Shown: positions 3,284-56,238, counted from the stretch's first letter. The stretch: DNA of 64,000 nucleotides from Spirochaetia bacterium (GCA_965203055.1 OZ241863.1:96001-160000), one strand, 5' to 3'. Notes: generated by a model from the letters alone, not told the origin. Program-made: numbers and translations.

Positions 3284-4915
3284 TCAGGCGGGGGCGGCGG
3301 CCCCCTGGCCGACGGTATCGGTCGGGCCGGTGAAGCCGGGACCGCCGGCCGCCACGTAGCCGCGGCTGGCGCCGGAGCGGTCCGGGCTCACCCAGAAGGA
3401 GTACAGCGCCGCGTCGCGCAGGTGGAAGCGCAGCCGCACCGGCCGGCCCGCGAGTTCCGCCAGGCCGCCGGCATTGCCCCAGGTGACCGCCTGCCGGGTG
3501 GCATCGCCGGTCACCGGCGCGCAGCGCTCGCGTGAGCAATGGCCGAGCGGGTTGCCGGCGGCGTCCAGCGCCTCCACCCGCAGCTCGCCGCCCGCCGCGG
3601 CGGCGTTGACGAACAGGTGGCGGCCGCTGAAGCGCAGCGGGCGGGTGGTCAACGTGCCGCCGTCGGCGCCGGCCGCATGGGACACGAAGCCGTCGCGGCG
3701 CAGGGTCGCCAGGCCGGTGCTGCCGCCGGCGTACATGTGCGCGCCGAGCTTCGGCGAGACGCCGGAGAAGGCGCCGAAGTAGAGGTAGAGCCGGTCGCCG
3801 ACGATCAGACAGCACCCGCCGCAGGAGTGGATGTAGTCGCGGTTCCAGTCGCCCGGCTGGTGGGTGCCGGCCACGATCGGCAGGCGGTCGCGGCGGTCGA
3901 AGTGGAACCCGTCCCGGCTGTAGCCCACCAGCAGCTCGGTGATCTTGGGAAACCCGCCGGCCTCGCAGATCTCGTTGGGCGGCCCGCGGTGGATCATGAA
4001 GAAACCCAGCATGAGACTCTCGTAGCCCACGGCATCGATGTTGTAGAGCTGGGTCGGGTAACCGTGTTCCGGGGCCGGCGGGTCCAGATCGTCGGCGCCG
4101 GCCCAGTGGGCGACTTGCTCCGGTTCCCAGGCGGCGCCGGCGAACAGGTCCGGGTGCTCGTGGTAGCCGCGCAGGCGCCCGACCGCCGGAGCGCTGGTGC
4201 GGATGCTGTATACCCAGCGCTTGCGGAACGGGTTGTAGAAGATGGTGGTATTGTCGCCGCCGCGGCCGGTGGCGGCGCGTTCGCGCCAGTGGATGCCGTC
4301 CGCCGAGGAATAGACGTGGCCGCCCACCCACTCGTTGGCGGTGCCGGGGCCGCCCAGCTCGCCGTAGCGGAAGCCGGCGCCGCGCCGGCGGTGGTAGGCG
4401 AACATCTTGAAGCGTTCCGCGGCGCGCGCGGCCTCCTGATCGAGCCATACTCCGACGCCGTCCCGCTGATAGCTGGGCCGTAGCGGCAGCACCCGGTTGG
4501 TACCCGGCTCCACGTCCAACTCCGGGCGCTCCCAATGCACGCCGTCGCGGCTGGTGGCCAACGCCACTCCGTCGAACCAGCCGGCGTGGTACCACAGCTT
4601 GAACAGCCCGTCCGCCGGATCGTAGAAGGCGCCGTCCTTGAATGGGCAGGCCGTGGGACACAGCCCGAAGTTCATTTCCAACGGGGTCTCCGGCACCAGC
4701 ACCGGGCTTGCCTCGTGCAGCACCGGGGTATGGAACTCGCGCCGCAGGGAACTCTCGGCGATCAGAAACTCATCCACCAGGAGTTGCCGCCCCACGTCGA
4801 TGGGGATCACCGCCGGCGGCCGCTCCAGGTAGGGGACCGGCCCCGGCTCCCGCGCCTCGCGCGCCAGCCCGCGCGGCGGCCACTCCGCAGGTTGCTCGAT
4901 CCCGTTGTAGCTCAC
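3284..4915 (-). CDS. Beta-propeller glycoside hydrolase-like protein (GH32/GH43-like clan)
   Basis: Repeated Asp-box-like motifs SRDGVHW, SADGIHW, SRDGFHF; typical GRQLLVDEFLI N-terminus and LRRDGFVS...LYSFW C-terminal domain. GTG start overlaps the MazG stop (GTGA). Confidence 0.6.
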   Translation of the reverse strand: MSYNGIEQPAEWPPRGLAREAREPGPVPYLERPPAVIPIDVGRQLLVDEFLIAESSLRREFHTPVLHEASPVLVPETPLEMNFGLCPTACPFKDGAFYDPADGLFKLWYHAGWFDGVALATSRDGVHWERPELDVEPGTNRVLPLRPSYQRDGVGVWLDQEAARAAERFKMFAYHRRRGAGFRYGELGGPGTANEWVGGHVYSSADGIHWRERAATGRGGDNTTIFYNPFRKRWVYSIRTSAPAVGRLRGYHEHPDLFAGAAWEPEQVAHWAGADDLDPPAPEHGYPTQLYNIDAVGYESLMLGFFMIHRGPPNEICEAGGFPKITELLVGYSRDGFHFDRRDRLPIVAGTHQPGDWNRDYIHSCGGCCLIVGDRLYLYFGAFSGVSPKLGAHMYAGGSTGLATLRRDGFVSHAAGADGGTLTTRPLRFSGRHLFVNAAAAGGELRVEALDAAGNPLGHCSRERCAPVTGDATRQAVTWGNAGGLAELAGRPVRLRFHLRDAALYSFWVSPDRSGASRGYVAAGGPGFTGPTDTVGQGAAAPA

Positions 4916-5298
4916 CGCGCCTGTTTCTCCCGTGCCTTCGCCGTTGCCCATATCCGCTTCGCTTCCTCCTCGGTGACTTCGGTGCCGTCGAACACGAACG
5001 GCTTGCGCCGCTGCATCTTGGCCACCACCTGATCCAGCACTTCATGCGCCGCGAAGTAGCCGCTACGTTCCGCCAACAGCGCGCAGACTACGACGTCCCA
5101 CAGCAGATCGCCAAGTTCCTCGCGGAGATTCTCGTGGTCGCGGTTGGCGACCGCGAGCAGTACCTCGTCGGCTTCGGCGCGCAGCTCCGCCGCGTACTGC
5201 TCCACGGTGCGCGTCGTGGTCCACGGGCAGCGGGCCAGCACCTTGCGCGCCGCGGCCGCCAGTTCCACAAAGCTCTCCGTCACGAGTCGTTCGCTCAT
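4912..5298 (-). CDS. Single-domain MazG nucleotide pyrophosphohydrolase
   Basis: CPW, EADEV and LREELGDLLW motifs; KMQRRKPFVF ending. Confidence 0.8.
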   Translation of the reverse strand: MSERLVTESFVELAAAARKVLARCPWTTTRTVEQYAAELRAEADEVLLAVANRDHENLREELGDLLWDVVVCALLAERSGYFAAHEVLDQVVAKMQRRKPFVFDGTEVTEEEAKRIWATAKAREKQAR

Positions 5299-5428
5299 CT
5301 GGAATCTCATCATCATTATATGCTGCGGCTGCCGGCTCCGCATCGGAGCCGCTGCCCGCCGCCGGCGGTGAATGAATGGACCCGGTCGATTCGGCCGTGG
5401 TATGACCCACGGCGTGGAGCAGCTCCCA

Positions 5429-5893
5429 ATGATCTCCCTGCGCGTCAACGGCGCGGCGCGCCGCGTGCCGGCGCCGCCCGACACCCCGTTGCTGCTGGTG
5501 CTGCGCAACGACCTGCAGCTCGGCAGCCCCAAGTACGGCTGCGGCGCGGAGCAGTGCGGGGCCTGCATGGTGCTGATCGACGGCAACGCGGCGCCCACCT
5601 GCCGGCTGCCGGTGAGCGCCGCCGCGGGGCGCGAGATCGTCACCGTCGAAGGGCTGGCGCCGGGCAGCGCCCTGCACCCGGTTCAGCAGGCGTTCATCGA
5701 CGGCAACGCAGTGCAGTGCGGCTACTGCGCGAGCGGCGTAATGATTGCGGGCGCGGCGCTGCTGGCGCGCAACCCGACGCCCACGCGGGCCGAGATCCAG
5801 GCGGCCCTGGACCGCAACATCTGCCGGTGCGGGGCGCACAACCGCATGATCGCCGCGCTCCGGCGGGCCGCGGCCGCCGCGGCCGCGGACTGA
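5429..5893 (+). CDS. (2Fe-2S)-binding small subunit, molybdenum hydroxylase (IorA/NicA-like)
   Basis: KYGCGAEQCGAC, QCGYC and NICRC motifs; GGAG upstream of ATG 5429. Confidence 0.9.
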   Translation: MISLRVNGAARRVPAPPDTPLLLVLRNDLQLGSPKYGCGAEQCGACMVLIDGNAAPTCRLPVSAAAGREIVTVEGLAPGSALHPVQQAFIDGNAVQCGYCASGVMIAGAALLARNPTPTRAEIQAALDRNICRCGAHNRMIAALRRAAAAAAAD

Positions 5894-12413: not shown

Positions 12414-12706
12414 TCACCAACGGGCGGCGTCGAGGCCGGGCACGCGGGAGAACTCGCCCAGGTTGCGGGTCGCCAACCTGATGGAATGCGCCAAGGCGAT
12501 GGCGGCGATCATCAGATCGTTCGCCCCGAGCGGACGGCCCTCACGCCGTAGCTGGGCTCTGATCATTCCGTAGCGCATGGCTGCCTCGTCGTCGAAGGGC
12601 AGCGACGGAAACGCTTGGCAGAAGGTCTCCACCCGCTGCAGGTTCTCGGCTACCCGCGCCGAGTTATACGCGGTATGCAGACGCTGGTGTCCAGCAGCCA
12701 GATCAG
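12414..12706 (-). pseudogene. vapC: VapC PIN toxin with an internal out-of-frame deletion
   Basis: The N-terminal IWLLDTSVCI is in one frame and joins AYNSARVAENL...DLMIAAIAL...LATRN..EFSRVPGL in another frame at 12672/12671. The segment carrying the conserved Glu is absent. Confidence 0.75.
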
Positions 12707-12924
12707 CGGATCGCCTCGACGTCCTCCGGCGGAGGATCATCCGGTTCGACCAGATCGCCGCGCCCGTGACGGAGCAGGTCGACCAGGCTCCGCGGCCACT
12801 CGGTGAGGCTCTCCCGCCGGATCAACGCGCTGATCCACGCCGACAGGCTGCGGTGCTGCTGCCCGGCCTGCTTGCGCGCCGCTTCCAGCACCTCCGCAGG
12901 CAGATACACGGTAACTTGCGCCAT
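12703..12924 (-). CDS. RHH (CopG-like) antitoxin, VapB-type
   Basis: MAQVTVYLP...SLSAWI ribbon-helix-helix with an acidic tail; the stop overlaps the toxin start. Confidence 0.75.
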   Translation of the reverse strand: MAQVTVYLPAEVLEAARKQAGQQHRSLSAWISALIRRESLTEWPRSLVDLLRHGRGDLVEPDDPPPEDVEAIR

Positions 12925-14188: not shown

Positions 14189-15571
14189 ATGTTGTCGCAA
14201 CAGCCCGTTCTGCGCCAGGAGCAGCGTCTCAAGATGACCCCGCAGCTCTACCAGGCGATTCGCATCATGGCGCTGCCCCTGCACGATCTGCAGTCCACCA
14301 TCCAGCAAGAGCTGGAGCGCAATCCGGCGCTCGAGGTGGTCGAGGACAACACCACTACCTCGTTGGACGAAGCCGGCGCGGCGCGTAACGAGGAGGAGAG
14401 CGTATTCGCCGAGTCGTCCGACCCCGGCTACCTGAACGGCAGCCGCGGCACCGACGAAGACGCCAAGCGCCGGTTCCTGGAGGGAGCTCTGGCGCGGCCG
14501 GAAACGCTGCAGGAACATCTGTCGTGGCAACTTCGCCTGCAGCCCCTCACCGCGCAGGAGTACCGCCTCGGCGAGCTGCTGATTCGCAACCTGGACCACA
14601 ACGGGTTTACGCTGGAGGAGCCCGAGACTCTGGACCGGGACGCTCCGCCGGAGCGGCTGGGCAAGCTGATCGAGATGATCCAGGGATTCGACCCGCCCGG
14701 CTGCTGTACCAGCGACTTCACCGCTTCGCTGCTGGCCCAGATCCGCGTGCACCCACATTCCGAACCGGGCAGCGCGGAGCTGGTGCGCAACTACATGGGA
14801 CTGGCCGAGCGCGGCAAGATCGCGGAGATCGCGCGCCGCATGGCGGTTTCGGAGGAGGAGGTGCGCGCCATCCTCGACTTCGTGCGCGAGCTGGATCCGA
14901 TTCCCGGGCGCAACTACAGCGCCGAGCAGGTGCGTTACGTGAGCCCCGACGTTATCGTCAAGCAGCTCGACGGCGAGCTTGGCCTGCTGCTCAATGACGA
15001 ACAGCTGCCGGTGTTGGGAGTCAATCGGTTCTTCGAGCAACTGAGCCGCGACGACTCTGACCGCGAGCTGCGCAAGTTCGTCAATCACAATCTGCAGGAT
15101 GCGCGCTGGTTCATGCGCAGCCTCGCCGAACGCAACCGTTCCCTGCGCAAGGTCACCGAGGCGGTAGTGAACGCGCAACGCGAATTCTTTCGCCGCGGGC
15201 CCAAGTACCTGGTACCCCTCACCCTCAAGGACGTCGCCGCCGAGGTCGGGGTCAGCGAGGCGACCGTATCGCGGCTGGCCAACGGCAAGTACGTGCAGAC
15301 CGAGTTCGGTATCTTCGAGTTGCGCTACTTCTTTACCAACTCGATCTCCGGGGCGGGTTCCAAAGGTTCCCGCTTTTCGAAAGCCGGCGTCAAGGAGATG
15401 ATCCGCGAGATCGTCACCGGCGCGGGCCCGACGGACGGGGCGGCCGGCAAGCCACTGTCCGACAGCCGTATCGCCGAGATACTCGCCGGTCGAGGAGCGA
15501 AGATCGCCCGGCGTACGGTGGCAAAGTATCGCAAGGAGCTGGATATCGACAGCTCCTATCGACGTACCTGA
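14189..15571 (+). CDS. rpoN: RNA polymerase sigma-54 factor
   Basis: Q/L-rich region I (QRLKMTPQLYQAI), SEATVSR HTH, RpoN box ARRTVAKYR. Confidence 0.97.
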   Translation: MLSQQPVLRQEQRLKMTPQLYQAIRIMALPLHDLQSTIQQELERNPALEVVEDNTTTSLDEAGAARNEEESVFAESSDPGYLNGSRGTDEDAKRRFLEGALARPETLQEHLSWQLRLQPLTAQEYRLGELLIRNLDHNGFTLEEPETLDRDAPPERLGKLIEMIQGFDPPGCCTSDFTASLLAQIRVHPHSEPGSAELVRNYMGLAERGKIAEIARRMAVSEEEVRAILDFVRELDPIPGRNYSAEQVRYVSPDVIVKQLDGELGLLLNDEQLPVLGVNRFFEQLSRDDSDRELRKFVNHNLQDARWFMRSLAERNRSLRKVTEAVVNAQREFFRRGPKYLVPLTLKDVAAEVGVSEATVSRLANGKYVQTEFGIFELRYFFTNSISGAGSKGSRFSKAGVKEMIREIVTGAGPTDGAAGKPLSDSRIAEILAGRGAKIARRTVAKYRKELDIDSSYRRT

Positions 15572-15597
15572 AATTCGACGACCAGGAGCAACGAACG

Positions 15598-15918
15598 ATG
15601 CAGCTTCAGGTAAAAGCGGTTCACTTCGAGCTGGCAGAGCGGCAACGACAACACGTCCACCGCCGGGTGCAGCGGTTCACCTTTGCGCACGAGTACCTGG
15701 TGGACCTGGCAGTGACCCTCACCCGGGAACGCAACCTGTTCCACGCCGAGGCCTCGCTGCACTTCCGGTGGGGCGCGATCACCCACCTCAAGGTGAGTGG
15801 CTATGATCTGATCGAGGCAGTCGACAGGCTGTTCGACAAGGTGCAGGCCAAAGTAACCAAGGAAAAGAGCCGGATCACTTCGCACGGCGACCCGCACCGC
15901 GCCGCGCCGCGCGGCTGA
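15598..15918 (+). CDS. hpf: Ribosome hibernation promoting factor (HPF/RaiA)
   Basis: 106 aa, AGGAG RBS, directly after rpoN; DLIEAVDRLFDKV...KEK pattern. Confidence 0.8.
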   Translation: MQLQVKAVHFELAERQRQHVHRRVQRFTFAHEYLVDLAVTLTRERNLFHAEASLHFRWGAITHLKVSGYDLIEAVDRLFDKVQAKVTKEKSRITSHGDPHRAAPRG

Positions 15919-15940
15919 CGCCGGCGCCGGCCGCCATCGG

Positions 15941-16897
15941 ATGACTGTTCTCGACCTGCTGCAGCTCGACCCGAAGGAGCACGAGCCGCTGGACCTGCGC
16001 TGCGTCGGCGGGCGCCGCGGGCTGACGGCGCAGCTCCACGGACCGGAGCTGAACCGGCCCGGCCTCGCCCTGGGCGGCTTCTTCGACAGCTTCGCCTGGC
16101 AGCGCATCCAGGTGTTCGGCCGGGGCGAGAGCGCCTACTTGCAGAAGCTGGCCGCGGAAGGGGTCACCGCGCCGCTGCGTGAGATGGTCTCGTATGAGCT
16201 TCCCTGCAGTGTATTTACCCACGGCATCGATCCCACCGAAGACTTTTTGCGCCTGGCGGAGGAGGCCGGACGGGCGGTGCTGCAAACGCCGCTGTCCACC
16301 GCCGACTTCACGTCGCGCGTGGTCCGCATTCTGGCCCTCATGTTCGCGCCGTCCACGCAGGTGCACGGCGTGATGCTGGAGGTGTTCGGGATGGGGGTGC
16401 TGCTTCAGGGGCCCAGCGGCGTCGGCAAGAGCGAAGCTGCGCTGGCACTGGTGGAGCGCGGCCACCGGCTGGTGGCCGACGACAAGGTCGATCTGCGCCT
16501 GGTCGGCAACGTGCTGCACGGCAGCGGGCCCCACGCCAGTCATCACATGGAGATCCGCGGCTTGGGCATCATCAACATCTCATACCTGTTCGGCGTGGGC
16601 GCGGTCCTCGATTCCAAGAGCGTGCAGCTCGTGGTGCGGCTGGAGGATTGGGAGCCGGGCAAAAGCTACGACCGGGTGGGACTCGATAAGAGTACCGTCG
16701 AGTTTCTCGACGTCGGCGTCCGTGAGGTGCTGATTCCGGTGCGCCCCGGGCGTCCCATCTGGATCCTCATCGAGACGGCGGCGATGAACGAACGTCTCAA
16801 ACACATGGGCTACTACTCGGCGGCAGAGTTCAACCGCAACGTCCCGCACTGGATGGACGGCAGTCGCCCGCGGACCGTCACGATCGAGGAGTGGTGA
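15941..16897 (+). CDS. hprK: HPr kinase/phosphorylase
   Basis: LNRPGLAL, VHGV, GPSGVGKSE, LVADD, HHMEIRGLGII. Confidence 0.96.
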   Translation: MTVLDLLQLDPKEHEPLDLRCVGGRRGLTAQLHGPELNRPGLALGGFFDSFAWQRIQVFGRGESAYLQKLAAEGVTAPLREMVSYELPCSVFTHGIDPTEDFLRLAEEAGRAVLQTPLSTADFTSRVVRILALMFAPSTQVHGVMLEVFGMGVLLQGPSGVGKSEAALALVERGHRLVADDKVDLRLVGNVLHGSGPHASHHMEIRGLGIINISYLFGVGAVLDSKSVQLVVRLEDWEPGKSYDRVGLDKSTVEFLDVGVREVLIPVRPGRPIWILIETAAMNERLKHMGYYSAAEFNRNVPHWMDGSRPRTVTIEEW

Positions 16898-16900
16898 GCG

Positions 16901-17173
16901 TTGATCGAACGTGAAGTTCTCATCATCAACCGGGCGGGCATCCATGCCCGCCCGGCCGCCAAGCTGGTGCAGACCGCCAGCGCGTTCTCGTGCGACATCT
17001 TTCTCGAGAGCGGGGGCGAACGGGTCAACGGAAAGTCCATCATGGGCATCATAACGTTGGGGGCCACCTATCAGACCAGGGTCAGAATCATTGCCGACGG
17101 CGCCGATGAACAGGCCGCGGTGGCCGCTCTGGCCGAGCTGTTCGCGCGCCGCTTCGAAGATCCGGAGTCGTGA
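16901..17173 (+). CDS. ptsH: Phosphocarrier protein HPr
   Basis: GIHARPA (His15) and GKSIMG (Ser46). Confidence 0.95.
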   Translation: MIEREVLIINRAGIHARPAAKLVQTASAFSCDIFLESGGERVNGKSIMGIITLGATYQTRVRIIADGADEQAAVAALAELFARRFEDPES

Positions 17174-17243
17174 TCGGAGCCGGGGCGCCGGCCGGCGCCC
17201 TTGGCGCGGCGCGGCGCAATCTTCATAATGCCGGAGAGCGGCG

Positions 17244-17855
17244 ATGAAGGGGTTGACGATCCGCCAGCGCGAGGTGTATGAGTTCATCGAAGGGTTCATC
17301 CGGCACAAGTACCCGCCGACGGTGCGCGAGCTCGCCGGCCACTTCGCCATTTCCGTCAGAGCGGCGCACGATCATCTCAAGGCACTGAAGAAGAAGGGCT
17401 TCATCCGCTGGGACGAGGGCCGGTCGCGGTCCATCGAGTTGCTTGACGCCGTCAGTCCCGCGCCGCCCCCGGAGCTGATAACGCGCGTTCCCTTGCTGGG
17501 CATCGTGGCGGCCGGGGTTCCGGTATTTGCCGACGAGAACTTCGAGGGCAGCGTGGTAATAGCCAGCGAGCTGCTCGGTTCCGGCGATCACTTCGCGTTG
17601 CGCGTGCAGGGGGACAGCATGAACGACGCCGGCATCCTCGACGGCGACATCGCCGTCATCCACCGCCAGCAGCATGCCGACAACGGCGACATCGTGGGAG
17701 TGATGATCGATCAGAAGGCGACCCTGAAGCGGTTCTTCCTGGAAGCCAACCGGGCCCGCCTGGAGCCGGCGAGTCGCAACCGCAGCCACCGGACGATATT
17801 CACCCGCGAACTCAGAATCCTCGGCAAGCTCCGGGTGGTGCAGCGGGTCTATTGA
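17244..17855 (+). CDS. lexA: LexA repressor
   Basis: LTIRQREV...PPTVREL wHTH, VAAG cleavage site, GDSM Ser, ATLKR Lys. Confidence 0.95.
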   Translation: MKGLTIRQREVYEFIEGFIRHKYPPTVRELAGHFAISVRAAHDHLKALKKKGFIRWDEGRSRSIELLDAVSPAPPPELITRVPLLGIVAAGVPVFADENFEGSVVIASELLGSGDHFALRVQGDSMNDAGILDGDIAVIHRQQHADNGDIVGVMIDQKATLKRFFLEANRARLEPASRNRSHRTIFTRELRILGKLRVVQRVY

Positions 17856-29548: not shown

Positions 29549-29842
29549 ATGAGAATTATCGCCAAGAGGACGTTGCGGGAGTTCTGGGAGCGTCACCGGG
29601 ACTCGGAACCTCCGTTGCGCGCTTGGTATCAGGAAGTCGCGCGAGGGGATTGGGATACGCCGGCCAAGTTGAAGACGCGGTATCCGAGCGCCAGCATCGT
29701 CGCCGGCAACCGCGTGGTGTTCAACATCAAGGGCAATACCTACCGGCTGGTAACGAAGATCAACTATCGATACCGCGCCGTCTACGTGCGGTTCCTGGGA
29801 ACCCACGCCGAGTATGACGCCGTGAACGTGGAGGAGGTGTGA
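29549..29842 (+). CDS. higB: HigB toxin (RelE superfamily)
   Basis: MRIIAKRTLREFW, VFNIKGNTYRL, FLGTHAEYD. Confidence 0.92.
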   Translation: MRIIAKRTLREFWERHRDSEPPLRAWYQEVARGDWDTPAKLKTRYPSASIVAGNRVVFNIKGNTYRLVTKINYRYRAVYVRFLGTHAEYDAVNVEEV

Positions 29843-29843
29843 G

Positions 29844-31058
29844 ATGGCCGAGGTCAAGCCGATCCGGACCGAGGCGGGCTATACGGCCGCGCTCGCCCGG
29901 GTCGACGAGCTGATGGACGCCGAGCCAGGGACCCCGGAAGGCGAGGAACTCGATGTGCTGGTTGACTTGGTGGAGTTGTACGAGAGCAAGCACGTGCCGA
30001 TGGAGTATCCGAGCCCCATCGCCGCGCTCGAGTTCCGCATGGAGCAGGCGGGGTTGGCACCGCGCGATCTGGTCCCTTACCTCGGCAGCCGCGCCAAAGT
30101 GGCGGAAGTGCTCTCCGGCAAGCGCGCAATCACCATGCCGATGGCGCGCGCCCTCCATCGGCATCTGGGAATACCGGCCGAGGTGCTGCTGCGCGAGCCA
30201 ACTGCAATCGCCGAGCAACCGTTGGCGAACATCGAATGGAGCCGCTTTCCTCTCAGGGAGATGGCCAAGCGGCAGTGGATTCCGGATCTCCCTGACCTCG
30301 CGCAGCGGGCGGAAGCGCTGGTCGGCGATTTGATCAAGCGCTCCGGCACCCGGCAGGTGGCTCCTGTCGGTCTGTACCGCAAGAACGACCGCCTCCGTAC
30401 CAACGCCAAGACCGATTGGTATGCGCTCCAGGCGTGGTGCTGGCAGGTGTTGGCGTCGGCGAATCGGAATCCGCCGACGACGAAGTACGCGCCGGGCACG
30501 GTCACCTTGGAGTTCCTCGGACAGGTCGCACGGCTGAGTCGTGAGGAGGAGGGCCCGCGTCTTGCCCACGAGTTCCTGGCAACCCACGGCATCCCGCTGG
30601 TCGTCGAACGGCATCTGCCGCGCACCTATCTCGACGGAGCGGCGCTCCGTCTCGGCGGCCGGCCGGTGGTCGCTCTGACCCTGCGCTACGACCGCATCGA
30701 CGGCTTCTGGTTCTGTCTGCTGCACGAGCTGGCGCACGTTGGCCGCCACCTGGACCACGATGTCGGCGCCGCCTTCGTCGACGACCTGTCACTGCGCAAG
30801 CCGGATGGGACAGCCGAAGACCGGCGCGAGGCGGAGGCGGACGAATGGGCCGCGGAGGCGCTCATCCCGGGCTCGGTCTGGGAAGCGAGCGCGGTGAGGA
30901 ATGAGCCGACACCGCTGGCGGTCATGGGCTTGGCCCAACGCCTGCAGATTCATCCGGCCACGATTGCCGGCAGGGTCCGGTACGAGCGCCGGAACTATCG
31001 GCTGCTGTCCCAATTCGTCGGCACCGGTAAGGTCCGCCGACAATTCGGCATTACATAA
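29844..31058 (+). CDS. higA: HigA antitoxin fused to an ImmA/IrrE-family Zn metallopeptidase
   Basis: KPIRTE..Y..AL, SPIAALEFRMEQ, EVLSGKR HTH; C-terminal FWFCLLHELAHV (HExxH) and EAEADEWA. Confidence 0.88.
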   Translation: MAEVKPIRTEAGYTAALARVDELMDAEPGTPEGEELDVLVDLVELYESKHVPMEYPSPIAALEFRMEQAGLAPRDLVPYLGSRAKVAEVLSGKRAITMPMARALHRHLGIPAEVLLREPTAIAEQPLANIEWSRFPLREMAKRQWIPDLPDLAQRAEALVGDLIKRSGTRQVAPVGLYRKNDRLRTNAKTDWYALQAWCWQVLASANRNPPTTKYAPGTVTLEFLGQVARLSREEEGPRLAHEFLATHGIPLVVERHLPRTYLDGAALRLGGRPVVALTLRYDRIDGFWFCLLHELAHVGRHLDHDVGAAFVDDLSLRKPDGTAEDRREAEADEWAAEALIPGSVWEASAVRNEPTPLAVMGLAQRLQIHPATIAGRVRYERRNYRLLSQFVGTGKVRRQFGIT

Positions 31059-34299: not shown

Positions 34300-35676
34300 G
34301 TGAGCGAGCACGGCGCCTTCGAGGCGGCCGCCGAACGCCTGCTGAGCCTGACCGACCTGCGCCGCGGCAGCGCTCAGGGCGACCGCCGGCGCTACCGCGC
34401 GCCGCGCATGCGCGCCTTGCTGGAACGGTTGGGGAACCCTCACCTGGCGGTTCCCACCATCCACGTCGCCGGCACCAACGGCAAGGGCACCACCGCGGCA
34501 ATGCTCGCCTCGATTCTGAGCAGCGCGGGCCTGCGCGCCGGCCTGTTCACCTCGCCCCATCTTCACTCCCTGGTGGAACGCATCCGGGTAGGCATGAGTC
34601 CCATCAGCCGCGCGCAGTTCGCCGCCCGGTTCGCCCAGGTCTGGCCCGCGGCGCAAGCGGTCGCCCGCTACTCCGGGTTGCCCGGCCCGGCGGCCCAGGT
34701 CACTACGCTCGAACTGTTGACGGCGATGGGGTTGCATCACTTCCGTGAGGTAGGGGCGGCGTACCAAGTCATCGAGGCGTTCGTCGGCGGCCGCGACGAC
34801 ACTACCAATATAGTGCAGCCGGTACTGTCCGTAATCACCAACATCAGCCGCGATCACGTCCCGGCGCTCGGCCGCACGCTGGTCGATATCGCCCGCGCCA
34901 AGGCCGGCATCATCAAACCGGGGGCGGCGGTCGTGGCGGCGCCGCAACTTCCCTCCGTGCAGGCCGAGCTGGAACGCGCGGCGCACCGCCGGGGGGCGGC
35001 GCTGGAGGCGGTTGCGAGCGTGCCGGCGCCGCCCGCCGCCAACCCGTTGGCGCAGTCGCAGCAGCACCTGCGCTGGCGGGGGCGCCATGGCGAGTACCGC
35101 GTGGCGCTGCCGTTGCGCGGTGCGGTACAGCGCGAAAACGCTGCCGTAGCCATTACCGCCGCGGAACGGTTGATCGATCTCGGCGCGCCACTGACCAGTG
35201 CGGACATCCGGCGCGGGCTGGAACGGGTCACCTGGCCGGCACGGTTCGAACTGCTGCAGCGGCAGCCGGTGCCGGTAGTGGCCGACGGCGCCCACTGCCC
35301 GCACGCCATGGCGCGGCTGGTGGCCGAGCTGCGGCTGGTGCGGCCGCGGCCGCGGCTGCACGCGCTGGTCGGCGGCCAGCAGGGTCACGACGCCGGCGCA
35401 ACGCTGCGCCTCCTGCACCCGCTCGCGGACTCGGTCACCGCGGTCCGCTCGCGCCACCCGCGCGCCCTGCCGGCCGCCGAGCTGGCGGCCGCGCTGCAGG
35501 CGGCAGGCATCGCCGCGCGGGCCAGCGAACTCCCGGTAGCGGACACCCTGCGGGAGTTGCTGGCCGCGGCCGCCGGCACCGACCTGGTGCTTGCCACCGG
35601 CTCACTGGCGGTCGCCGCGGAAGCGCGTGAGGCGCTCTTCCCGGCGATCGCCGCCGATCGCTATCCCGCGGCCTGA
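34300..35676 (+). CDS. folC: Folylpolyglutamate synthase/dihydrofolate synthase
   Basis: IHVAGTNGKGTT, FTSPHL, GGRDDTTN, KAGIIK, WPARFE, DGAH. Alternative start at 34270. Confidence 0.9.
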   Translation: MSEHGAFEAAAERLLSLTDLRRGSAQGDRRRYRAPRMRALLERLGNPHLAVPTIHVAGTNGKGTTAAMLASILSSAGLRAGLFTSPHLHSLVERIRVGMSPISRAQFAARFAQVWPAAQAVARYSGLPGPAAQVTTLELLTAMGLHHFREVGAAYQVIEAFVGGRDDTTNIVQPVLSVITNISRDHVPALGRTLVDIARAKAGIIKPGAAVVAAPQLPSVQAELERAAHRRGAALEAVASVPAPPAANPLAQSQQHLRWRGRHGEYRVALPLRGAVQRENAAVAITAAERLIDLGAPLTSADIRRGLERVTWPARFELLQRQPVPVVADGAHCPHAMARLVAELRLVRPRPRLHALVGGQQGHDAGATLRLLHPLADSVTAVRSRHPRALPAAELAAALQAAGIAARASELPVADTLRELLAAAAGTDLVLATGSLAVAAEAREALFPAIAADRYPAA

Positions 35677-35702
35677 AGGAACCTGGCGCCCGGCAGTCCG
35701 GC

Positions 35703-35882
35703 TCAGATTATGTCGGTGTCACGCACCGTCTTGCGCTTCGCCTTGCGGGCGTTCTCCACGGCCTCGTCACACACCTTGCGTACTTTCTCCGACAGCGCCT
35801 CGGCCACCGAGGCCGCCGTGTTCATTCCCGCGTCTTTGATGTAGCTCTTGACCTTGGAAGTAACTATCAAGATTTCTGCCAT
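35703..35882 (-). CDS. Bacterial histone-fold protein (Bd0055/HBb-like), 59 aa
   Basis: MAEILIVTSKVKSYIK.AGMNT...ALSEKVRKVCDEAVENARKAKRKTVRDTDI, with the RKTV..xD histone-fold signature; AAGGAG RBS. Confidence 0.88.
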   Translation of the reverse strand: MAEILIVTSKVKSYIKDAGMNTAASVAEALSEKVRKVCDEAVENARKAKRKTVRDTDII

Positions 35883-36012
35883 GCTGTGAGCTCCTTGTGC
35901 TGGATGGATAGTGTCAGGAACCGACGCGCGAACCATACCCGAAAGGCAAGGCGCGCGTCACCGGTCCTGCTGCGCTTGTTGCGCTTTGCGCGGGCGTGCT
36001 TGCCAAGCCAAC

Positions 36013-36840
36013 TCACGCTCCCGGCACGCGGCCCAAGCGCGCCCCGCAGCGCCGGCAGAAGGCGGCATCCAGCTCGTGGCCCCGGCGGCCGCAGGCCGGA
36101 CAGCGCCGGCGGTTGCGGGCATGGATGGTCTCGGACACCACCTCGGCGGTGACCAGTCCGGTGGGTACGGCGATGATACCGTAGCCCATGATCATGATCA
36201 CCGCGGCGATGCTCTGGCCCAGCCCGGTGCGCGGCGTGACATTCCCGTAGCCCACCGTAGTGAGGGTCACGATGGTCCAATACATGCTTTGCGGGATGCT
36301 GGTAAAGCCGTTCTCCTCGCCCTCGACCACGTAGATCAGCGAGCCCAGGATCACCGCAATGATCAACACGCTGAACAGGAACACCGTGATCTTGCGCCGA
36401 CTGGCGCGCAGCGCGCCCAGGATCACCGCGGCTTCCGCCATGTAGGGAACCAGCTTCAGAACCCGAAACACGCGCAGCACGCGCAGGAGCCGCAACACTG
36501 CCAGGTAATGGGTTCCGGGCAGCACCAGTGCGAGGAACGCCGGCAGCACCGCCAGCAGGTCGATGATCCCGAAGAAGCTCGCCGCATAGCGCTGCGGCTG
36601 GCGAACCGCGGTCAGACGCAGCAGATATTCGACCAGGAACACGCCGGTGAACACCCACTCGGCCGCTCGCAAAGCCGAAATCCAGTTCGCGGTTGCGGCG
36701 GAACTCTCGGCCAGCACCACCGCGACGCTGGCGATGATGACGGCAATCAGGACCACGTCGAAGGTGCGGCCGGCGCGGGTATCGGACAGGAAGATGATGG
36801 TATGCAGCCGTTCGCGCCAGTCGGGGAACGATTGCTTCAT
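36013..36840 (-). CDS. Voltage-gated potassium channel (6TM) with C-terminal Zn ribbon
   Basis: S4 RLLRVLRVFRVLK, selectivity filter TTVGYG, CPACG...FCRRCG. Confidence 0.92.
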   Translation of the reverse strand: MKQSFPDWRERLHTIIFLSDTRAGRTFDVVLIAVIIASVAVVLAESSAATANWISALRAAEWVFTGVFLVEYLLRLTAVRQPQRYAASFFGIIDLLAVLPAFLALVLPGTHYLAVLRLLRVLRVFRVLKLVPYMAEAAVILGALRASRRKITVFLFSVLIIAVILGSLIYVVEGEENGFTSIPQSMYWTIVTLTTVGYGNVTPRTGLGQSIAAVIMIMGYGIIAVPTGLVTAEVVSETIHARNRRRCPACGRRGHELDAAFCRRCGARLGRVPGA

Positions 36841-47220: not shown

Positions 47221-49035
47221 TCAGCCGGGGAACACTGCCGCCGGGCGGCCCCGGGTTGCGGTCCGCAGGCGGAACAGGCCGCCGGCATGCGGCTGCGCGG
47301 CCAGCGCCGGCCCATCCTGCCCGTAGCGCGCAGTGGTGACGTAGAGCTGATCCAGCGCCGGTCCCCCGAACGCGCACGAAGTAGTCAGGTTGGCCGGTAC
47401 CGGGATGGTCTGCAACAGCGCGCCGGAGGTCGGATGCCAGCGCGTCACGCAGCCGCCGCCCCAGTGCGCCACCCACAAAGTTCCATCGAGCGCGACCGTC
47501 ATGCCGTCAGGGACTCCGCGGTCCGCCGGCAGCGTCACCGCGGGGCGCGGATTGGTGATGTTGCCGCTGGCGGCATCGTAGTCGAAGGCGGTGACCTGCC
47601 GGGTCAGGGAATCGATGTAGTACATGGTGCGGCCGTCGGGGCTCCAGTCCATGCCGTTGGTGTTGTCGATGCCGCTCAGGCGCCTGGTCACGGTCAAGTC
47701 TGGCTCCAGGCTGTACAGGTGGCCCAGCGTGTCGGTGGCGCGGTCGACGGCAATCGACCCGAACCAGAAGCGCCCGGCGGGGTCCACCTTGCCGTCGTTG
47801 AAATGGGTCTCGGGACGATCCGCCTCGATGGCCGCGACGCGCGTCCTGGCGCCGCTGACCGGGTCCAGGTGATAGATGCCCGAGGCGGTCGCCGCCAGCA
47901 GCCCGCCCCCCGCGCGCGGCACCACGCAGCCAACGAACTCGCCGACCTCGACCCGGCCGGCAAGGCCGGAGGCGGGTTGGTAGTGGTGCACGATTCCGGC
48001 GAACAGATCGACCCAGTAGAGCGTCCCGGCGGCGGCGTGCCACACGGGTCCTTCGCCCAGTTCGGCGCGCGCGTCGAGCACCAGTTCCGGCTCCGGCTCT
48101 CGCTCCGGCGCGACCGGCGCCGCCCGCACGCGGGCGGGCGCGGCCCGGGTCCCGCCGGCCGGCGCCGTCCCGGCGCCCCGGGCGCGTTCGGCGCGCTCCT
48201 CCCGGCGCCAACACCGCCACTGTTCCCGTTCCGGGTACTCGCCGCGGTCGCCGGACGCACGCCGCGCCAGCAGCTCCCGGTCCGGCTCGAACAGCCGCGC
48301 CACGCGCCGGTCGCCGCGCGCGCGGGCGGCGCGAATCTCGCGCTGCATGCGTTCCATGCCGTAGGCGTCCCGCTTCGGCAGCCAGCACTTGGTGTAGAAG
48401 TAGCTGACGAAGATACGCAGGCGGCCGCTGCAGTTGCCGGAGGTGCTGTGCAGCAGGGAAGAGTGGATCAACACCGTGTCGCCCGCCGCCAGCTCCACCG
48501 CCTGCTCGCCGGCCTGGATCTTCCCAGGGCCCTCGCTGCCGACCAGCGCGCCGCCGCGGTGGGAGCCGGGAATCACCCGCAGCGGGCCATATTCGGCTCC
48601 CTCCTGCAGGTAGGTGAGCACGTTCACCGCGTTCGGCGGCAGGTAATCATCGGTCCAGCCGGGCAGGCTCCACATGTCGCGGTGCCAGGCGCGCACCGCG
48701 CGCGCTTCGGTTGCGCTGACCGGCGGCGTGACGGCGACCTGCAGACTGTCGAAGCCCACGAACGGCCCCATCAGCTCCTCCAGGAGATCCAGCATCGCCG
48801 GCGCCACCAGCGCGGGGAGAAACAGGTCGGGGCGCTCCTGCAGCAGGCCGCGCAATACCGCCCGCGGCTGCCCCACGCCGCCCCCGCGCTGGTCCTCGCC
48901 CCACTCGCGGCGGTAGCGCTCCTCGAACACCTGCCGCCACTGCTCCAACCAGGCCGCGTTGAAGCCGCGCAGGATGGTGTAGCCGCGCTGCTCGAACTCC
49001 GCCACCCGGGCCGACAGGGTACCGTTCACCGTCAT
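47221..49035 (-). CDS. PhyH-family Fe(II)/2-OG dioxygenase fused to SMP-30/gluconolactonase
   Basis: N-terminal WHRD...IPGSH...LLHSTSGN..R; C-terminal LGEGPVW, FNDGKVDPAGRFW, NGMDWSPDG, PDGM. One continuous frame, ATGA-coupled to the sirtuin. Confidence 0.8.
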   Translation of the reverse strand: MTVNGTLSARVAEFEQRGYTILRGFNAAWLEQWRQVFEERYRREWGEDQRGGGVGQPRAVLRGLLQERPDLFLPALVAPAMLDLLEELMGPFVGFDSLQVAVTPPVSATEARAVRAWHRDMWSLPGWTDDYLPPNAVNVLTYLQEGAEYGPLRVIPGSHRGGALVGSEGPGKIQAGEQAVELAAGDTVLIHSSLLHSTSGNCSGRLRIFVSYFYTKCWLPKRDAYGMERMQREIRAARARGDRRVARLFEPDRELLARRASGDRGEYPEREQWRCWRREERAERARGAGTAPAGGTRAAPARVRAAPVAPEREPEPELVLDARAELGEGPVWHAAAGTLYWVDLFAGIVHHYQPASGLAGRVEVGEFVGCVVPRAGGGLLAATASGIYHLDPVSGARTRVAAIEADRPETHFNDGKVDPAGRFWFGSIAVDRATDTLGHLYSLEPDLTVTRRLSGIDNTNGMDWSPDGRTMYYIDSLTRQVTAFDYDAASGNITNPRPAVTLPADRGVPDGMTVALDGTLWVAHWGGGCVTRWHPTSGALLQTIPVPANLTTSCAFGGPALDQLYVTTARYGQDGPALAAQPHAGGLFRLRTATRGRPAAVFPG

Positions 49036-49859
49036 GCCGACCCACCGAGGGCGCGGACCAGCGCCGGCAGGAGCACGGTCACGTCGCCCTCCAGCCGCAG
49101 ATCGGCAAGCGCGTCGTGGGCGGTCGGACCGCGGTTGATGACGGCGTACCGGGCGCCGTGCTGCGCCGCCCGCAACGGCACGTCCGCGGCGGGCCGCACC
49201 TCCAGCGTGGAACCAATCGCCAGCACCAGGTCGGCGCGGCCCGCGGCGCGGAACGCGCGCTGCAGCTCGGCCGGCGGCAACGGCTGGCCGAACGATACGG
49301 TCGCCGTCTTCAGGAACCCGCCGCAGGCCTGGCAGCGGGGACAGTTGCCGGTGGCCTGGAACTCCTCCAGCGCGGGCTGCGGCGCGCTGCGGGCGCCGCA
49401 TGCCAGACACTCCACCGCCCGGTTGGTGCCGTGCAACTCGATGATCCGCTCGGCCTCGTGGCCGGCATCCCGGTGCAGGCCGTCCACGTTCTGGGTCACC
49501 AGGACGTCCAGCTTGCCGAGCCGGTCCAGCTCCGCCAGGGCGAGGTGGGCGGCGTTGGGCCGCGCCCGGGCGAACTCCCGGTGCCCCTCCGCCTTGTACT
49601 GCCAATGCGCGCGGCGCGCCGCTTCGGAAGCGACGAAGTCCTGGAACAGCACCGGCCGGCGCCGCGTCCACTGTCCGCCCGGGCCGCGAAAGTCGGGGAT
49701 CCCCGAGGCGGTGGACATGCCCGCTCCGGTGAACACCAGCACGCGCCGGGCGGCGCGCACCGCCCCGGCCAAGTCCGCTACCTGCGCCGCCGCCTCTTCC
49801 TCGATCACCGCTGCCGCCGCCTGCCAACCAATCTTGCCCGGTTCGAGCCCCTCCTGCAA
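49032..49859 (-). CDS. Sir2-family NAD-dependent deacylase
   Basis: TGAGMSTASGIPDFRG, TQNVDGLH, ELHG, CxxC...CxxC, GSTL, INRG. Confidence 0.92.
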   Translation of the reverse strand: MQEGLEPGKIGWQAAAAVIEEEAAAQVADLAGAVRAARRVLVFTGAGMSTASGIPDFRGPGGQWTRRRPVLFQDFVASEAARRAHWQYKAEGHREFARARPNAAHLALAELDRLGKLDVLVTQNVDGLHRDAGHEAERIIELHGTNRAVECLACGARSAPQPALEEFQATGNCPRCQACGGFLKTATVSFGQPLPPAELQRAFRAAGRADLVLAIGSTLEVRPAADVPLRAAQHGARYAVINRGPTAHDALADLRLEGDVTVLLPALVRALGGSA

Positions 49860-49895: not shown

Positions 49896-50237
49896 TCAGC
49901 GGTGGTCGCCGTCGCCCTGCAGGGTGCCGGCCGCCTGGCGCCGCGCCAGTTTGCGCAGGTTGTGCTCCGCCACCTCCTGCAGCGAGAGATCCAGGTCGGT
50001 GCAGATCTGGGCCAGGTACCACAGCACGTCGCCAAGCTCGCTCTTGAGGGCGGCGCGATCCTCGCCGCTGATCACGCCGCCCTTGTCGCGGAAGATCTTC
50101 TTCACCTTGCCGGCCACCTCCCCCGCTTCGTTGGTCAGGCCCAGGGTCGGGTAGAGGATGGCGTGGTCCACCACCACCCGGTTCCAGGTGCGGCGCGACT
50201 GGCGCTGATAGCGGGCGAAGGTTGCGGCATCTGCCAT
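49896..50237 (-). CDS. MazG-like nucleoside triphosphate pyrophosphohydrolase
   Basis: LGLTNEAGEVAGKVKK..RD, ELGDVLWY, NLRKL..R...G.GD.R. Confidence 0.88.
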   Translation of the reverse strand: MADAATFARYQRQSRRTWNRVVVDHAILYPTLGLTNEAGEVAGKVKKIFRDKGGVISGEDRAALKSELGDVLWYLAQICTDLDLSLQEVAEHNLRKLARRQAAGTLQGDGDHR

Positions 50238-54256: not shown

Positions 54257-55618
54257 TCAGGTGCGCTGCCGCAACTCCAGCAACGCCGCGGAGGGCCGCA
54301 CCGGATAGGGGGCGGCGTCCTGCAGCGCGCGCACCGGCGCCGGCAGGCTGGCGAGGCTGGCGGCCGCGCGCGCCCGGACCGCCGCCAGCGGCTCCCGCGC
54401 CGCCACCCGCGTTCCCGCGCGCAACTGCGGCCGCAGCAGCGGCACGCGCCGTTCACCGCGGCCGGCGCCCGCGGCGAGCTCCTCGGTCTCCTCCGCAAGG
54501 CAGAGCAGGTCGCGCGCGGCGTGCCGCGCCGCGTAGCAGCGCACCACCTGCTTGATTCCGGGCAGGGTAGCCTTGCCCGGCTCCTCCGAGCGCTTGGCAA
54601 TCGCGCGCCAGCCGCCGCCGCGGCGCACCGCCACCAGCTTGTACACCCCGCCCAGCGCGGGGTCGCCATGGGCGGTGACCAGGCGCGTACCGACGCCCCA
54701 CGCGTCGATCGGCGCGTTGGCGTTGCGCAACTCGGCAATGCGGGTCTCGTCCAGATCGCTCGACACCACGATCTGGGCCTCCTCGAGTCCCGCCGCGTCC
54801 AACTGCGCCCGCACCGCGCGGCTGAGATGGTCGAGCGCGCCACTGTCCAGGCGCACGCCGAAGCCGCGCCGGCCGCGCGCCTGCAGCGCGGCCAGCACCG
54901 GGATGGCATGAGGAATCCCGCTGTCCAGGGTGTCGTAGGTGTCGACCAGCAGTATCGCCCGCTCCGGGTAGAGCTCGGCGAAGCGGGCGAACGCGTCCTG
55001 TTCGTCGCCGAAAGCCTGGATCCAGGAGTGCGCCATGGTACCGCTGACCGGGATGCCGTAGCGGGCGCCGGCGGCGAGGTTGGAGGTGCCGTGCACGCCG
55101 CCGACGTAGGCGGCGCGCGCCGCCGACAACGCCCCGTCCAGCCCCTGGGCGCGGCGCAGCCCGAACTCGAACACCCGCCCCCCGCCCGCGGCCTGCACCA
55201 CGCGCGCCGCCTTGGTGGCGATCAGGGTCTGGAAGTTGACGATGTTGAGCAGCAGACTCTCCAGGAGCTGCGCTTCGGTGAGGCGCGCGGTGACCCGCAG
55301 CAGCGGCTCGCCGGGGAACATCGCGGTCCCCTCCGGCGGCGCGTGCAACGCGCCCTGAAATCGCCAGCGCTCCAGGAACTGCAGGAACTCGGCGCGAAAC
55401 AACCGCAGTCCCTCCAGGTACTCCAGTTGCCGCGCGCTGAAGCGCAGCGCCGCGGCCGCATCGACGACCTCCTCCAGACCCGCCGCCAGCGCATAGCCGC
55501 CGCCGAACGGCGGGCGCCGGAAGAACAGTTCGAAGGCGACCTCGGGATCGCGGCGCTGCAGGAAGTAGCCCTGCAGCATGGTGAGCTGATAGAGGTCGGT
55601 GGCGAGCGCCGAGACCAC
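54257..55618 (-). CDS. pncB: Nicotinate phosphoribosyltransferase
   Basis: LATDLYQLTM, EFGLRRAQG, GTMAHS, LVDTYD, VRLDSG, GVYKL. Confidence 0.95.
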   Translation of the reverse strand: MVSALATDLYQLTMLQGYFLQRRDPEVAFELFFRRPPFGGGYALAAGLEEVVDAAAALRFSARQLEYLEGLRLFRAEFLQFLERWRFQGALHAPPEGTAMFPGEPLLRVTARLTEAQLLESLLLNIVNFQTLIATKAARVVQAAGGGRVFEFGLRRAQGLDGALSAARAAYVGGVHGTSNLAAGARYGIPVSGTMAHSWIQAFGDEQDAFARFAELYPERAILLVDTYDTLDSGIPHAIPVLAALQARGRRGFGVRLDSGALDHLSRAVRAQLDAAGLEEAQIVVSSDLDETRIAELRNANAPIDAWGVGTRLVTAHGDPALGGVYKLVAVRRGGGWRAIAKRSEEPGKATLPGIKQVVRCYAARHAARDLLCLAEETEELAAGAGRGERRVPLLRPQLRAGTRVAAREPLAAVRARAAASLASLPAPVRALQDAAPYPVRPSAALLELRQRT

Positions 55619-55632
55619 GCCGGACGCTTCGA

Positions 55633-56238
55633 TCAGGAAATGCGGATTCCCGCGGCGCGCATCTCCGCCAGCGCCCGGGCCACGTTGCCGGCGGGCTGAT
55701 CCACGCCGCGGCTGGCGCCGGCGAACAGTTCGACCTCGAACCCCAGGCGCGCCGCATCGAGGGCCGAGTACGCTACGCAGTAGTCGGTCGCGAGGCCGCA
55801 CAGCGCCACCCGCCGCACCCCCAGCGCCCGCAGATAGCCGGCCAAGCCGGTGGCGGTGCGGCGGTCGTTCTCGAAGAACGCGGAGTAGGAATCCAGCGCC
55901 CGGCGCGTTCCCTTGCGCAAGATCAGGTTGACGCGGCGGGTGTCCAGCGCCGGATGCAACGCCGCTCCGGCGGTGCCCTGCACGCAGTGGTCGGGCCACA
56001 GCGTCTGCTCGATCCCGCCAATGCGCACCGTGCCGTAGAGGGCGGCGCGAGGATGCTGCGAGACGAACGAGCAATGCTTGCGCGGATGCCAGTCCTGGGT
56101 CGCGACCACCAGGTCGTAGGCCGTCATCAGGCGGTTCGCCGCCGCCACCACGGCGTCGCCGTCAGCCACCGCCAGGGCGCCGCCGGGGCAGAAGTCAATC
56201 TGCACGTCGATGACCAGGAGCGCGCTACTCATCGCCAT
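55633..56238 (-). CDS. pncA: Nicotinamidase/pyrazinamidase
   Basis: IDVQIDFCPGGAL, TQDWHP, WPDHC, GLATDYCV. Confidence 0.95.
   Translation of the reverse strand: MAMSSALLVIDVQIDFCPGGALAVADGDAVVAAANRLMTAYDLVVATQDWHPRKHCSFVSQHPRAALYGTVRIGGIEQTLWPDHCVQGTAGAALHPALDTRRVNLILRKGTRRALDSYSAFFENDRRTATGLAGYLRALGVRRVALCGLATDYCVAYSALDAARLGFEVELFAGASRGVDQPAGNVARALAEMRAAGIRIS

Follow-up and report, generated by a model that had tools for sequence, protein, structure and literature searches.

A gene of 59 codons plus stop lies on the minus strand at 35703..35882 of the window (the whole stretch of 64,000 nucleotides that was analysed) and almost certainly encodes an alpha3-truncated bacterial histone. Its product, translated from the minus strand, is the 59-residue protein MAEILIVTSKVKSYIKDAGMNTAASVAEALSEKVRKVCDEAVENARKAKRKTVRDTDII. 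It is small and basic (6.5 kDa, pI 9.25, with 12 Lys and Arg residues against 9 Asp and Glu residues), and carries the RxTxxxxD, or RKTV, motif as R50-K51-T52-V53 and D57. The gene, its expression signals and one further group of genes mentioned below are as follows.

35703..35882, minus strand: histone gene, 59 codons and a TGA stop (ATG at 35882-35880, TGA at 35705-35703)
35883..36012, minus strand: spacer of 130 bp, from the stop of the K+ channel gene to the histone ATG
35891..35896, minus strand: Shine-Dalgarno sequence AAGGAG, 8 nt before the ATG
35932..35937, minus strand: -10-like box, TATGGT (TATAGT in the related loci L001 and L002), which holds the spurious ATG at 35936
35956..35961, minus strand: -35-like GTGACG, within the invariant block CCGTGACGCG
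49032-49859 and 54257-56238, minus strand: Sir2 and NAD-salvage genes, with no link to the histone gene seen

The gene for a K+ channel (36013-36840, minus) lies upstream on the same strand, with its stop 130 bp from the histone ATG, and folC converges on the histone gene from the other side, ending at 35676, 26 bp past the histone stop. The neighbours of the histone gene are housekeeping genes (tag, folC, the K+ channel, murA, rpmE2, trpS and htpG), and the wider window is ordinary chromosomal DNA, with uvrC, gltA, ABC transporters and, at 14189-17855 (plus), an rpoN-hpf-hprK-ptsH cluster followed by lexA. Rfam models run over the whole window matched two tRNAs and nothing else.

Several other loci in the window deserve a brief mention. 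The best NCBIfam match of the K+ channel gene was a voltage-gated K+ channel model, at 54 bits against a cut-off of 300, and its product has a zinc-ribbon-like tail of the form CxxC...CxxC, RRCPACGRRGHELDAAFCRRCGARL. At 29549-31058 (plus), an ORF for a HigB-like toxin (97 aa, Pfam E 1.1e-31) is separated by 2 nt from the next ORF, of 404 aa, which matched no Pfam or NCBIfam model and is unusually large for a HigB partner. Only a few kb separate the gene for a Sir2-family deacylase from genes for nicotinate phosphoribosyltransferase and an isochorismatase/nicotinamidase-like protein, which belong to NAD salvage. Two genes with MazG domains lie at 4912-5643 and 49896-50237, while 12414-12740 holds a PIN-domain ORF.

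Translation start and upstream signals

The ORF listing of the window puts the start of the histone frame at 35936, which gives a protein of 77 aa. The ATG at this position is part of the TATGGT box. Both L001 and L002 read TATAGT here, and so do not have it, and in these relatives the in-frame open stretch ends 6 codons (L001) or 4 codons (L002) above the conserved ATG. Because the ATG at 35936 is absent and the frame is closed upstream in both relatives, we place the start at 35882 and reject the 77-aa form as an artefact of an ATG inside a -10-like box. The start, stop and length of the gene are conserved in L001 and L002, and the annotation of the histone is corrected from 77 to 59 aa. The initial annotation had described a basic protein of 59 aa behind an AAGGAG Shine-Dalgarno sequence, an upstream intergenic region of its own with a TATGGT box (35937-35932), an RKTV..D histone-fold signature, and a start misplaced at 35936 by the ORF listing; the sequence and its alignment with the relatives bear out all of these.

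The spacer is poorly conserved save for three elements, as shown by a three-way DNA alignment of the window, L001 and L002. The ribosome-binding sequence AAGGAGC, 7 nt before the ATG, is invariant in all three. The two boxes further upstream keep their distance, with 18 nt between GTGACG and the -10-like box in the window, 17 nt in L001 and 18 nt in L002; the conserved form around the -10-like box is GGTAT(G/A)GT, 17-18 nt downstream of GTGACG. The promoter-like box fits 8 of 12 consensus positions. Since a strict sigma-70 consensus scan of 35500-36200 gave no promoter-like site, it is from conservation and spacing that we infer that this -35/-10-like pair is the promoter of the histone gene. 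Conserved promoter-like boxes and a Shine-Dalgarno sequence are now documented for this histone gene.

A terminator scan over the same interval (35500-36200) also gave no site. The translation start region (35853-35925, minus) folded no better than its shuffles (z 0.03) and the 3' region (35630-35705) folded worse than its shuffles (z 1.69). As the RNA folds no better than shuffled sequence, neither a riboregulator nor a terminator is proposed for the gene. In the lowest-energy fold predicted for the 5' leader (35898-35925, minus), GGUUCCU pairs with the Shine-Dalgarno AAGGAGC, and this pairing partner is kept only partly in L001 and L002. The eight codons that follow the ATG have AT-rich third positions, which, like the strong Shine-Dalgarno sequence and the conserved boxes, give an indirect hint of expression.

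Conservation and predicted fold

The 59-residue protein matched Pfam PF00808 (CBFD_NFYB_HMF) at 29.0 bits, above the gathering score of 21.4 (E 1.3e-6). The only NCBIfam model that it matched was that of the archaeal histone superfamily, NF043032, at 28.7 bits and so below the cut-off of 50. A word-indexed search of a set of 5.8 billion proteins returned 44 candidates, and all 44 had E values of 1e-17 or lower and 76-97% identity. These close homologues are all 59-60 aa long, some are encoded on contigs that measure between 5 and 7.8 Mb, and the six of the 44 that are named all carry the name 'histone H3/H4'. Among cluster representatives, which were searched exhaustively, the E value was <= 0.001 for 500 proteins and <= 1e-10 for 35; many of the representatives are doublets, with two matched stretches each. 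A genome scan gave 11 loci with histone relatives. When the 934 six-frame stretches of the window were searched with a profile, no second histone gene emerged (next best E 4.8).

One retrieved protein, P0109 (202 aa), is 92% identical to the histone over its first 36 residues, beyond which its sequence is unrelated and rich in Arg, Ser and Ala. This protein appears to stem from a gene call with a frameshift in an assembly, and illustrates how a small histone gene can be mis-annotated.

L001 and L002 both come from genomes that their depositors titled 'MAG: Spirochaetia bacterium', the source of the lineage label used here, and their histones are 93% and 91% identical to that of the window. The GC content is similar (71.0% in L001, 72.4% in L002 and 70.1% in the window). 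The three are colinear over about 10 kb, with a DNA identity of 80-87% and the histone gene syntenic. The dN/dS values of the three pairwise comparisons between the window, L001 and L002 were 0.067, 0.177 and 0.072, and between the window and L001 the gene has 16 synonymous and 5 non-synonymous differences. By these substitution ratios, the histone gene is under purifying selection. Its GC content is 57%, compared to 70% for the window, because of its Lys, Ile and Thr codons. Recent transfer was considered as the cause of the low GC content and rejected, as GC3 is 0.80, the codons explain the difference and synteny at the locus extends to two relatives.

The AlphaFold2 (AF2) model of the protein had a pLDDT of 88.7 and showed the helix-loop-long helix-loop-helix topology of the histone fold, with alpha1 at residues 8-17, L1 at 18-23, alpha2 at 24-47, L2 at 48-54 and alpha3 at 55-57. 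Alpha3 is a single turn of 3 residues, alpha2 has 24 residues and the chain ends at 59. Shortening of alpha2 relative to nucleosomal histones follows the comparison made by Schwab et al. 2024 and Hocher et al. 2023, and the AF2 model has both the alpha3 of 3-4 residues and the short alpha2 by which Schwab et al. 2024 recognise alpha3-truncated histones. In Foldseek, the model reached TM scores of 0.92 with HBb, 0.85 with HLp, 0.85 with HTkC and 0.76 with HMfB. The 50 matches listed were all histone-fold chains, and all but one (NF-Y) were histone or nucleosome entries.

Sequence searches against the PDB gave the same order. With the single sequence, phmmer matched HBb/Bd0055 (8fvx, 8cmp) over residues 1-59 at E 2e-10 and 43.4 bits, HLp (9qt0) at 6e-9 and 38.8 bits, the archaeal face-to-face histone HTkC at 0.009 and HMfB at 0.015. 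With a family profile of 35 rows (A1), the values were 3.5e-25 for HBb, 3.9e-15 for HLp, 1.6e-11 for HTkC and 4.7e-4 for HMfB. Residues of HBb and HLp were mapped onto the window protein through the phmmer alignments.

When two copies of the chain were predicted together, the homodimer scored 0.89, whereas the highest score among 3 controls was 0.00. The mark used for a dimer was reached by 20 of 30 solved one-chain pairs and 1 of 23 solved single chains, counts that apply only roughly here, as the prediction was run on an alignment of our own. The dimer runs agreed in at least 98% of contacts, with a partner pLDDT of at least 94. The contacts were those of a handshake, alpha2 against alpha2 (34 with 34) and L1 (21-23) against L2 (52-53). 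As HBb dimers are already solved, the result speaks for likeness and is no independent proof, and the prediction may reflect the solved HBb dimer. The initial annotation had named Bdellovibrio Bd0055 (HBb) as a close counterpart and Leptospira as a source of related histones, and had pointed to Foldseek comparison with Bd0055 and HMf and to AlphaFold dimer models as checks. The HBb match in sequence and structure, the HLp match, the histone fold shared with HMfB and the predicted handshake homodimer all agree with what it proposed. It also suggested histone-based chromatin in this GC-rich lineage, a claim that goes further than a strong Shine-Dalgarno sequence and a conserved promoter-like box can show.

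Class placement and probable mode of DNA binding

To place the protein among bacterial histones, we counted the residues around the RxTxxxxD motif, with positions numbered from the clamp Arg; 195 proteins yielded 214 occurrences in 186 of them. Asp at +7 was present in 208 of the 214. In the close clade (45 occurrences) Asn at -6 and Arg at +4 were found in all 45, and Ala at -2 in 44 (Val in the other). Position +6 was Thr in 40, while the rest had Ser, Ile or Ala there. The other 169 occurrences mostly combined Arg at +6 with either Met or Leu at +4 (MDR in 62, LDR in 40, MAR in 13). The face-to-face signature, Arg at -6 with Asn at -2, occurred 6 times, in four doublet proteins, and all 6 occurrences carry Arg at +4, like HLp. 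The window protein has N44 and A48 in place of the face-to-face pair (R49 and N53 of HLp). Its loop, RKTVRDTD with K49 and R54, resembles the L2/alpha3 of HLp and differs from the M/L-x-R that most of the dimer-type relatives have. From its sequence, the window clade looks like an HLp-like L2/alpha3 on an HBb-like body.

The protein also has residues that are typical of bacterial dimers, namely S9, K10, K12, K16 and R50-K51-T52. S9, K12, R50, K51, T52 and D57 are invariant in all 35 aligned rows, and the dimer-core residues V11, L30, V34, V37 and I58 stay hydrophobic. A tree built on 62 alignment columns from 197 domains (of 235 domain hits, the 38 omitted being near-identical members of the close clade) gave the close clade 98% SH-aLRT support and set it among the dimer-type rows, away from the face-to-face-like rows. 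A dimer-type profile built without the window clade scored the window protein at 87.4 bits and a face-to-face-like profile at 64.6 bits, a difference of 23 bits from an uneven comparison, 158 domains against 7. An AU test on 53 rows did not reject the union of the window clade with the face-to-face-like clade (p 0.469, log-likelihood difference 3.0). This test drew on 7 of the 45 close-clade proteins (P0001-P0045), on each of the 9 face-to-face-like rows, and on 37 rows from the 180 others, comprising 31 taken at random and six chosen; P0189 was omitted for its long branch. On the balance of this sequence evidence, we tentatively file the window protein with the bacterial dimers (the HBb class), a class that is defined by sequence and not by structure (Schwab et al. 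2024).

Two observations concern other loci of the genome scan. L004 (4462-4902), L005 (5731-6171) and L008 (5668-6183) each encode a Cys/His-rich N-terminal domain fused to a histone fold, in MAGs labelled 'Bdellovibrionales' and 'Rickettsiales'; these fusions probably correspond to what Schwab et al. 2024 call ZZ histones. L007 (5881-6168), from Phycisphaeraceae, has the face-to-face R/N signature on manual reading of its translation, and a Lys-rich N-terminal tail, KKKAGKKKAIAK, that is reminiscent of eukaryotic histone tails.

How might the protein act? We consider it very likely that it is a DNA-binding, alpha3-truncated histone that works as a homodimer. Transcription would start from the putative promoter in the 130-bp spacer, and translation from the strong Shine-Dalgarno sequence would probably be at a high level. 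In the predicted dimer, two chains pair head to tail via antiparallel alpha2 helices (L30, V34, V37, V11, I58), and N-terminal residues 3-7 of both chains pair too. By analogy with HBb, the basic ridge of this dimer would touch the phosphate backbone of DNA across minor grooves with no sequence preference. In the paired L1-L2 sites, T22-A24 of one chain and K51-T52 of the other would touch DNA, with the R50-D57 clamp expected to hold these sites, and the first turns of alpha1 (T8-S9-K10, K12, K16) would add further contacts. The free dimer is the most likely form, because the full alpha3, the His of the archaeal four-helix bundle and the face-to-face Arg/Asn pair are all missing; such a dimer would most likely bend and compact DNA in the manner of HU and form no nucleosome-like particles. 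HBb bends and compacts DNA as a free dimer and without sequence preference (Hu et al. 2024). By this analogy, the window protein would bind and bend DNA, be abundant and act across the genome; bending as its particular mode of binding is somewhat better than an even call.

The protein could belong to the same family and bind differently, with dimers attached end-on via a single L1-L2 site to form a sheath round straight DNA. This mode was seen for HBb in a co-crystal, described as a nucleohistone filament with about one dimer per 2.5 bp (Hocher et al. 2023), and the window protein keeps both the complete L1-L2 site and the hydrophobic N-terminus that neighbouring dimers exchange in the HBb filament (MAEILIV compared to MAEVLVV). 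However, Hu et al. 2024 find bending in solution, the second interface used there, T8-S9-K10, is also kept here, and Hocher et al. 2023 themselves say that filament formation in vivo is not established. An end-on sheath also needs an acidic underside, and the window protein appears more basic near L2 (K47, K49, R54). We consider this mode unlikely.

The clade-specific loop could instead mark a hybrid alpha3 histone, HBb-type from alpha1 through L1 to the end of alpha2 and HLp-type in L2/alpha3 (RKTV-R-D-T-D). Compared to HBb, its loop carries Arg at +4 in place of +6, gains a Lys at -1 and lacks the salt bridge made by D49. Such a protein could have a DNA-binding geometry or higher-order assembly unlike those of HBb and HLp, and could serve as the main chromatin protein after loss of HU, as in Leptospira. 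We regard this full proposal as doubtful.

Close to it, and improbable in our view, is a face-to-face histone like HLp of Leptospira, in which two dimers form a ring tetramer that wraps about 60 bp. The single-sequence score for HLp is near that for HBb (38.8 compared to 43.4 bits, TM 0.85 for HLp), RKTV-R-x-T-D agrees with HLp in Arg at +4 and Thr at +6, and Arg at +4 also accompanies every one of the 6 occurrences of the R/N signature. One side of the HLp interface (T61, R55, F63) has recognisable counterparts in T56, R50 and I58. The other side has changed throughout, with R49, S52 and N53 replaced by N44, K47 and A48, and it is R49 and N53 that are reported as conserved among tetrameric forms (Schwab et al. 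2024; Hu et al. 2025). The first and last of these replacements run through the close clade, with Asn at -6 in 45 of 45 and Ala at -2 in 44 of 45. A common clade is not rejected by the AU test (p 0.469), but the free tree sets the window clade among dimer-type rows and the profiles favour the dimer type by 23 bits.

The protein could also have the histone fold and yet not be a global chromatin protein, and Schwab et al. 2024 caution that not every prokaryotic histone-fold protein is a genome organiser. It could be of low abundance or restricted to certain conditions, for example as a local regulator or as a protectant of DNA in stress or stationary phase, and its neighbours folC, the K+ channel gene, murA and rpmE2 have no link to chromatin. 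Against such a role, which we likewise hold to be improbable, Hocher et al. 2023 describe high expression for the relatives in Bdellovibrio, Leptospira and Waddlia, and HBb binds genome-wide and without sequence specificity (Hu et al. 2024). At the locus itself, the Shine-Dalgarno sequence is strong, the promoter-like boxes are conserved, and the protein is 91-93% identical to its L001 and L002 counterparts, compared to 80-83% for the flanking DNA.

GC-rich DNA yields many long spurious ORFs, and several long ORFs do overlap the histone locus on the plus strand, but a chance ORF or decaying gene can be dismissed in view of the Pfam and homologue E values, a dN/dS of 0.07-0.18, the 16 synonymous against 5 non-synonymous differences from L001, and the conserved start, stop and length.

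Comparison with known systems

To our knowledge, the characterisation of bacterial histones began in 2023, and HBb and HLp are the only two to have been examined in depth. Among the papers listed by our literature search on bacterial histones and Bd0055, none was a study of the clade's own protein. The class and even the clade are already in print. The survey of 18,343 bacterial genomes by Hocher et al. 2023 found 416 histone-fold proteins, and row 53 of its Table S1 is a 60-aa singlet from 'Spirochaetaceae bacterium bin103' (GCA_002238925.1). This singlet belongs to the same clade: it shares the N-terminus, has MNTAASVAEALS and ends in RKTVR-x-TD. A manual count of the printed row gives about 80% identity to the window protein, with one residue more in L1 and about 11 substitutions, and the singlet is catalogued there without being studied. 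Schwab et al. 2024 name the 'bacterial dimers' and give the Spirochaetota class Spirochaetia among their main hosts; in three searched files of their supplements, neither the window peptide nor the word 'Spirochaetia' was found. As class and clade were published before, the current picture is unchanged, and what the window gene adds is a conserved and correctly delimited member. This member comes from a large-genome lineage of 70% GC labelled Spirochaetia, in the phylum of Leptospira and with the other histone class. The clade-specific change in L2/alpha3 could offer a probe for the residues that set dimer against tetramer and bending against wrapping.

The closest known system is HBb/Bd0055 of Bdellovibrio bacteriovorus (8fvx, 8cmp, 9ezz, 9f0e), with 46-48% identity over the full length. 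The two proteins share the MAE-hydrophobic N-terminus, the S9-K10 motif, the lysines of alpha1, MNT in L1, RKTV, the RD clamp (R51-D58 in HBb, R50-D57 here), a short alpha2 and a one-turn alpha3. Among the DNA contacts listed by Hu et al. 2024, T8, S9, K10 and K12 are kept at the same numbers, and T23, A25, K52 and T53 correspond to T22, A24, K51 and T52. L1 of the window protein is one residue shorter. Two contacts differ: A23 replaces S24, and T56 stands where HBb touches DNA with R57. D49, which gives the clamp an extra salt bridge in HBb, is A48. The window protein has an Arg at 54 and an extra Lys at 49, and ends directly after alpha3. Its host also differs, with a 70% GC genome labelled Spirochaetia and no predatory Bdellovibrio.

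HLp of Leptospira perolatii (9qt0-9qt2), the bacterial face-to-face histone, is 44% identical to the window protein (TM 0.85). The fold with its truncated alpha3 is common to both, as is the pattern R-x-T-V-R-x-T-D in L2/alpha3, where HLp has RTT and the window protein RKT. The HLp DNA contacts A13/S14/K15, K17, K21 and T27 (Hu et al. 2025) correspond to T8/S9/K10, K12, K16 and T22. The tetramer residues R49, S52 and N53 of HLp correspond, as above, to N44, K47 and A48.

The archaeal histones HMfB and HTkA have in common with the window protein the histone fold, RKT-x4-D, the RD clamp and the L1-L2 DNA sites. The window protein differs from them in a shorter alpha2, an alpha3 cut to one turn and the absence of the sprocket arginine. 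The archaeal tetramerisation His, at the position of A48 in HBb (Hocher et al. 2023), is K47 here. Nucleosomal archaeal histones are marked by a full alpha3 together with this conserved His, and the window protein has neither. As it has no tetramerisation His and no sprocket arginine, no hypernucleosome is expected.

HU and IHF are functional analogues only. Like the proposed dimer they are small, basic, dimeric and sequence-independent benders of DNA, and Hu et al. 2024 liken the action of HBb to theirs, but their fold is unrelated and no homology is proposed.
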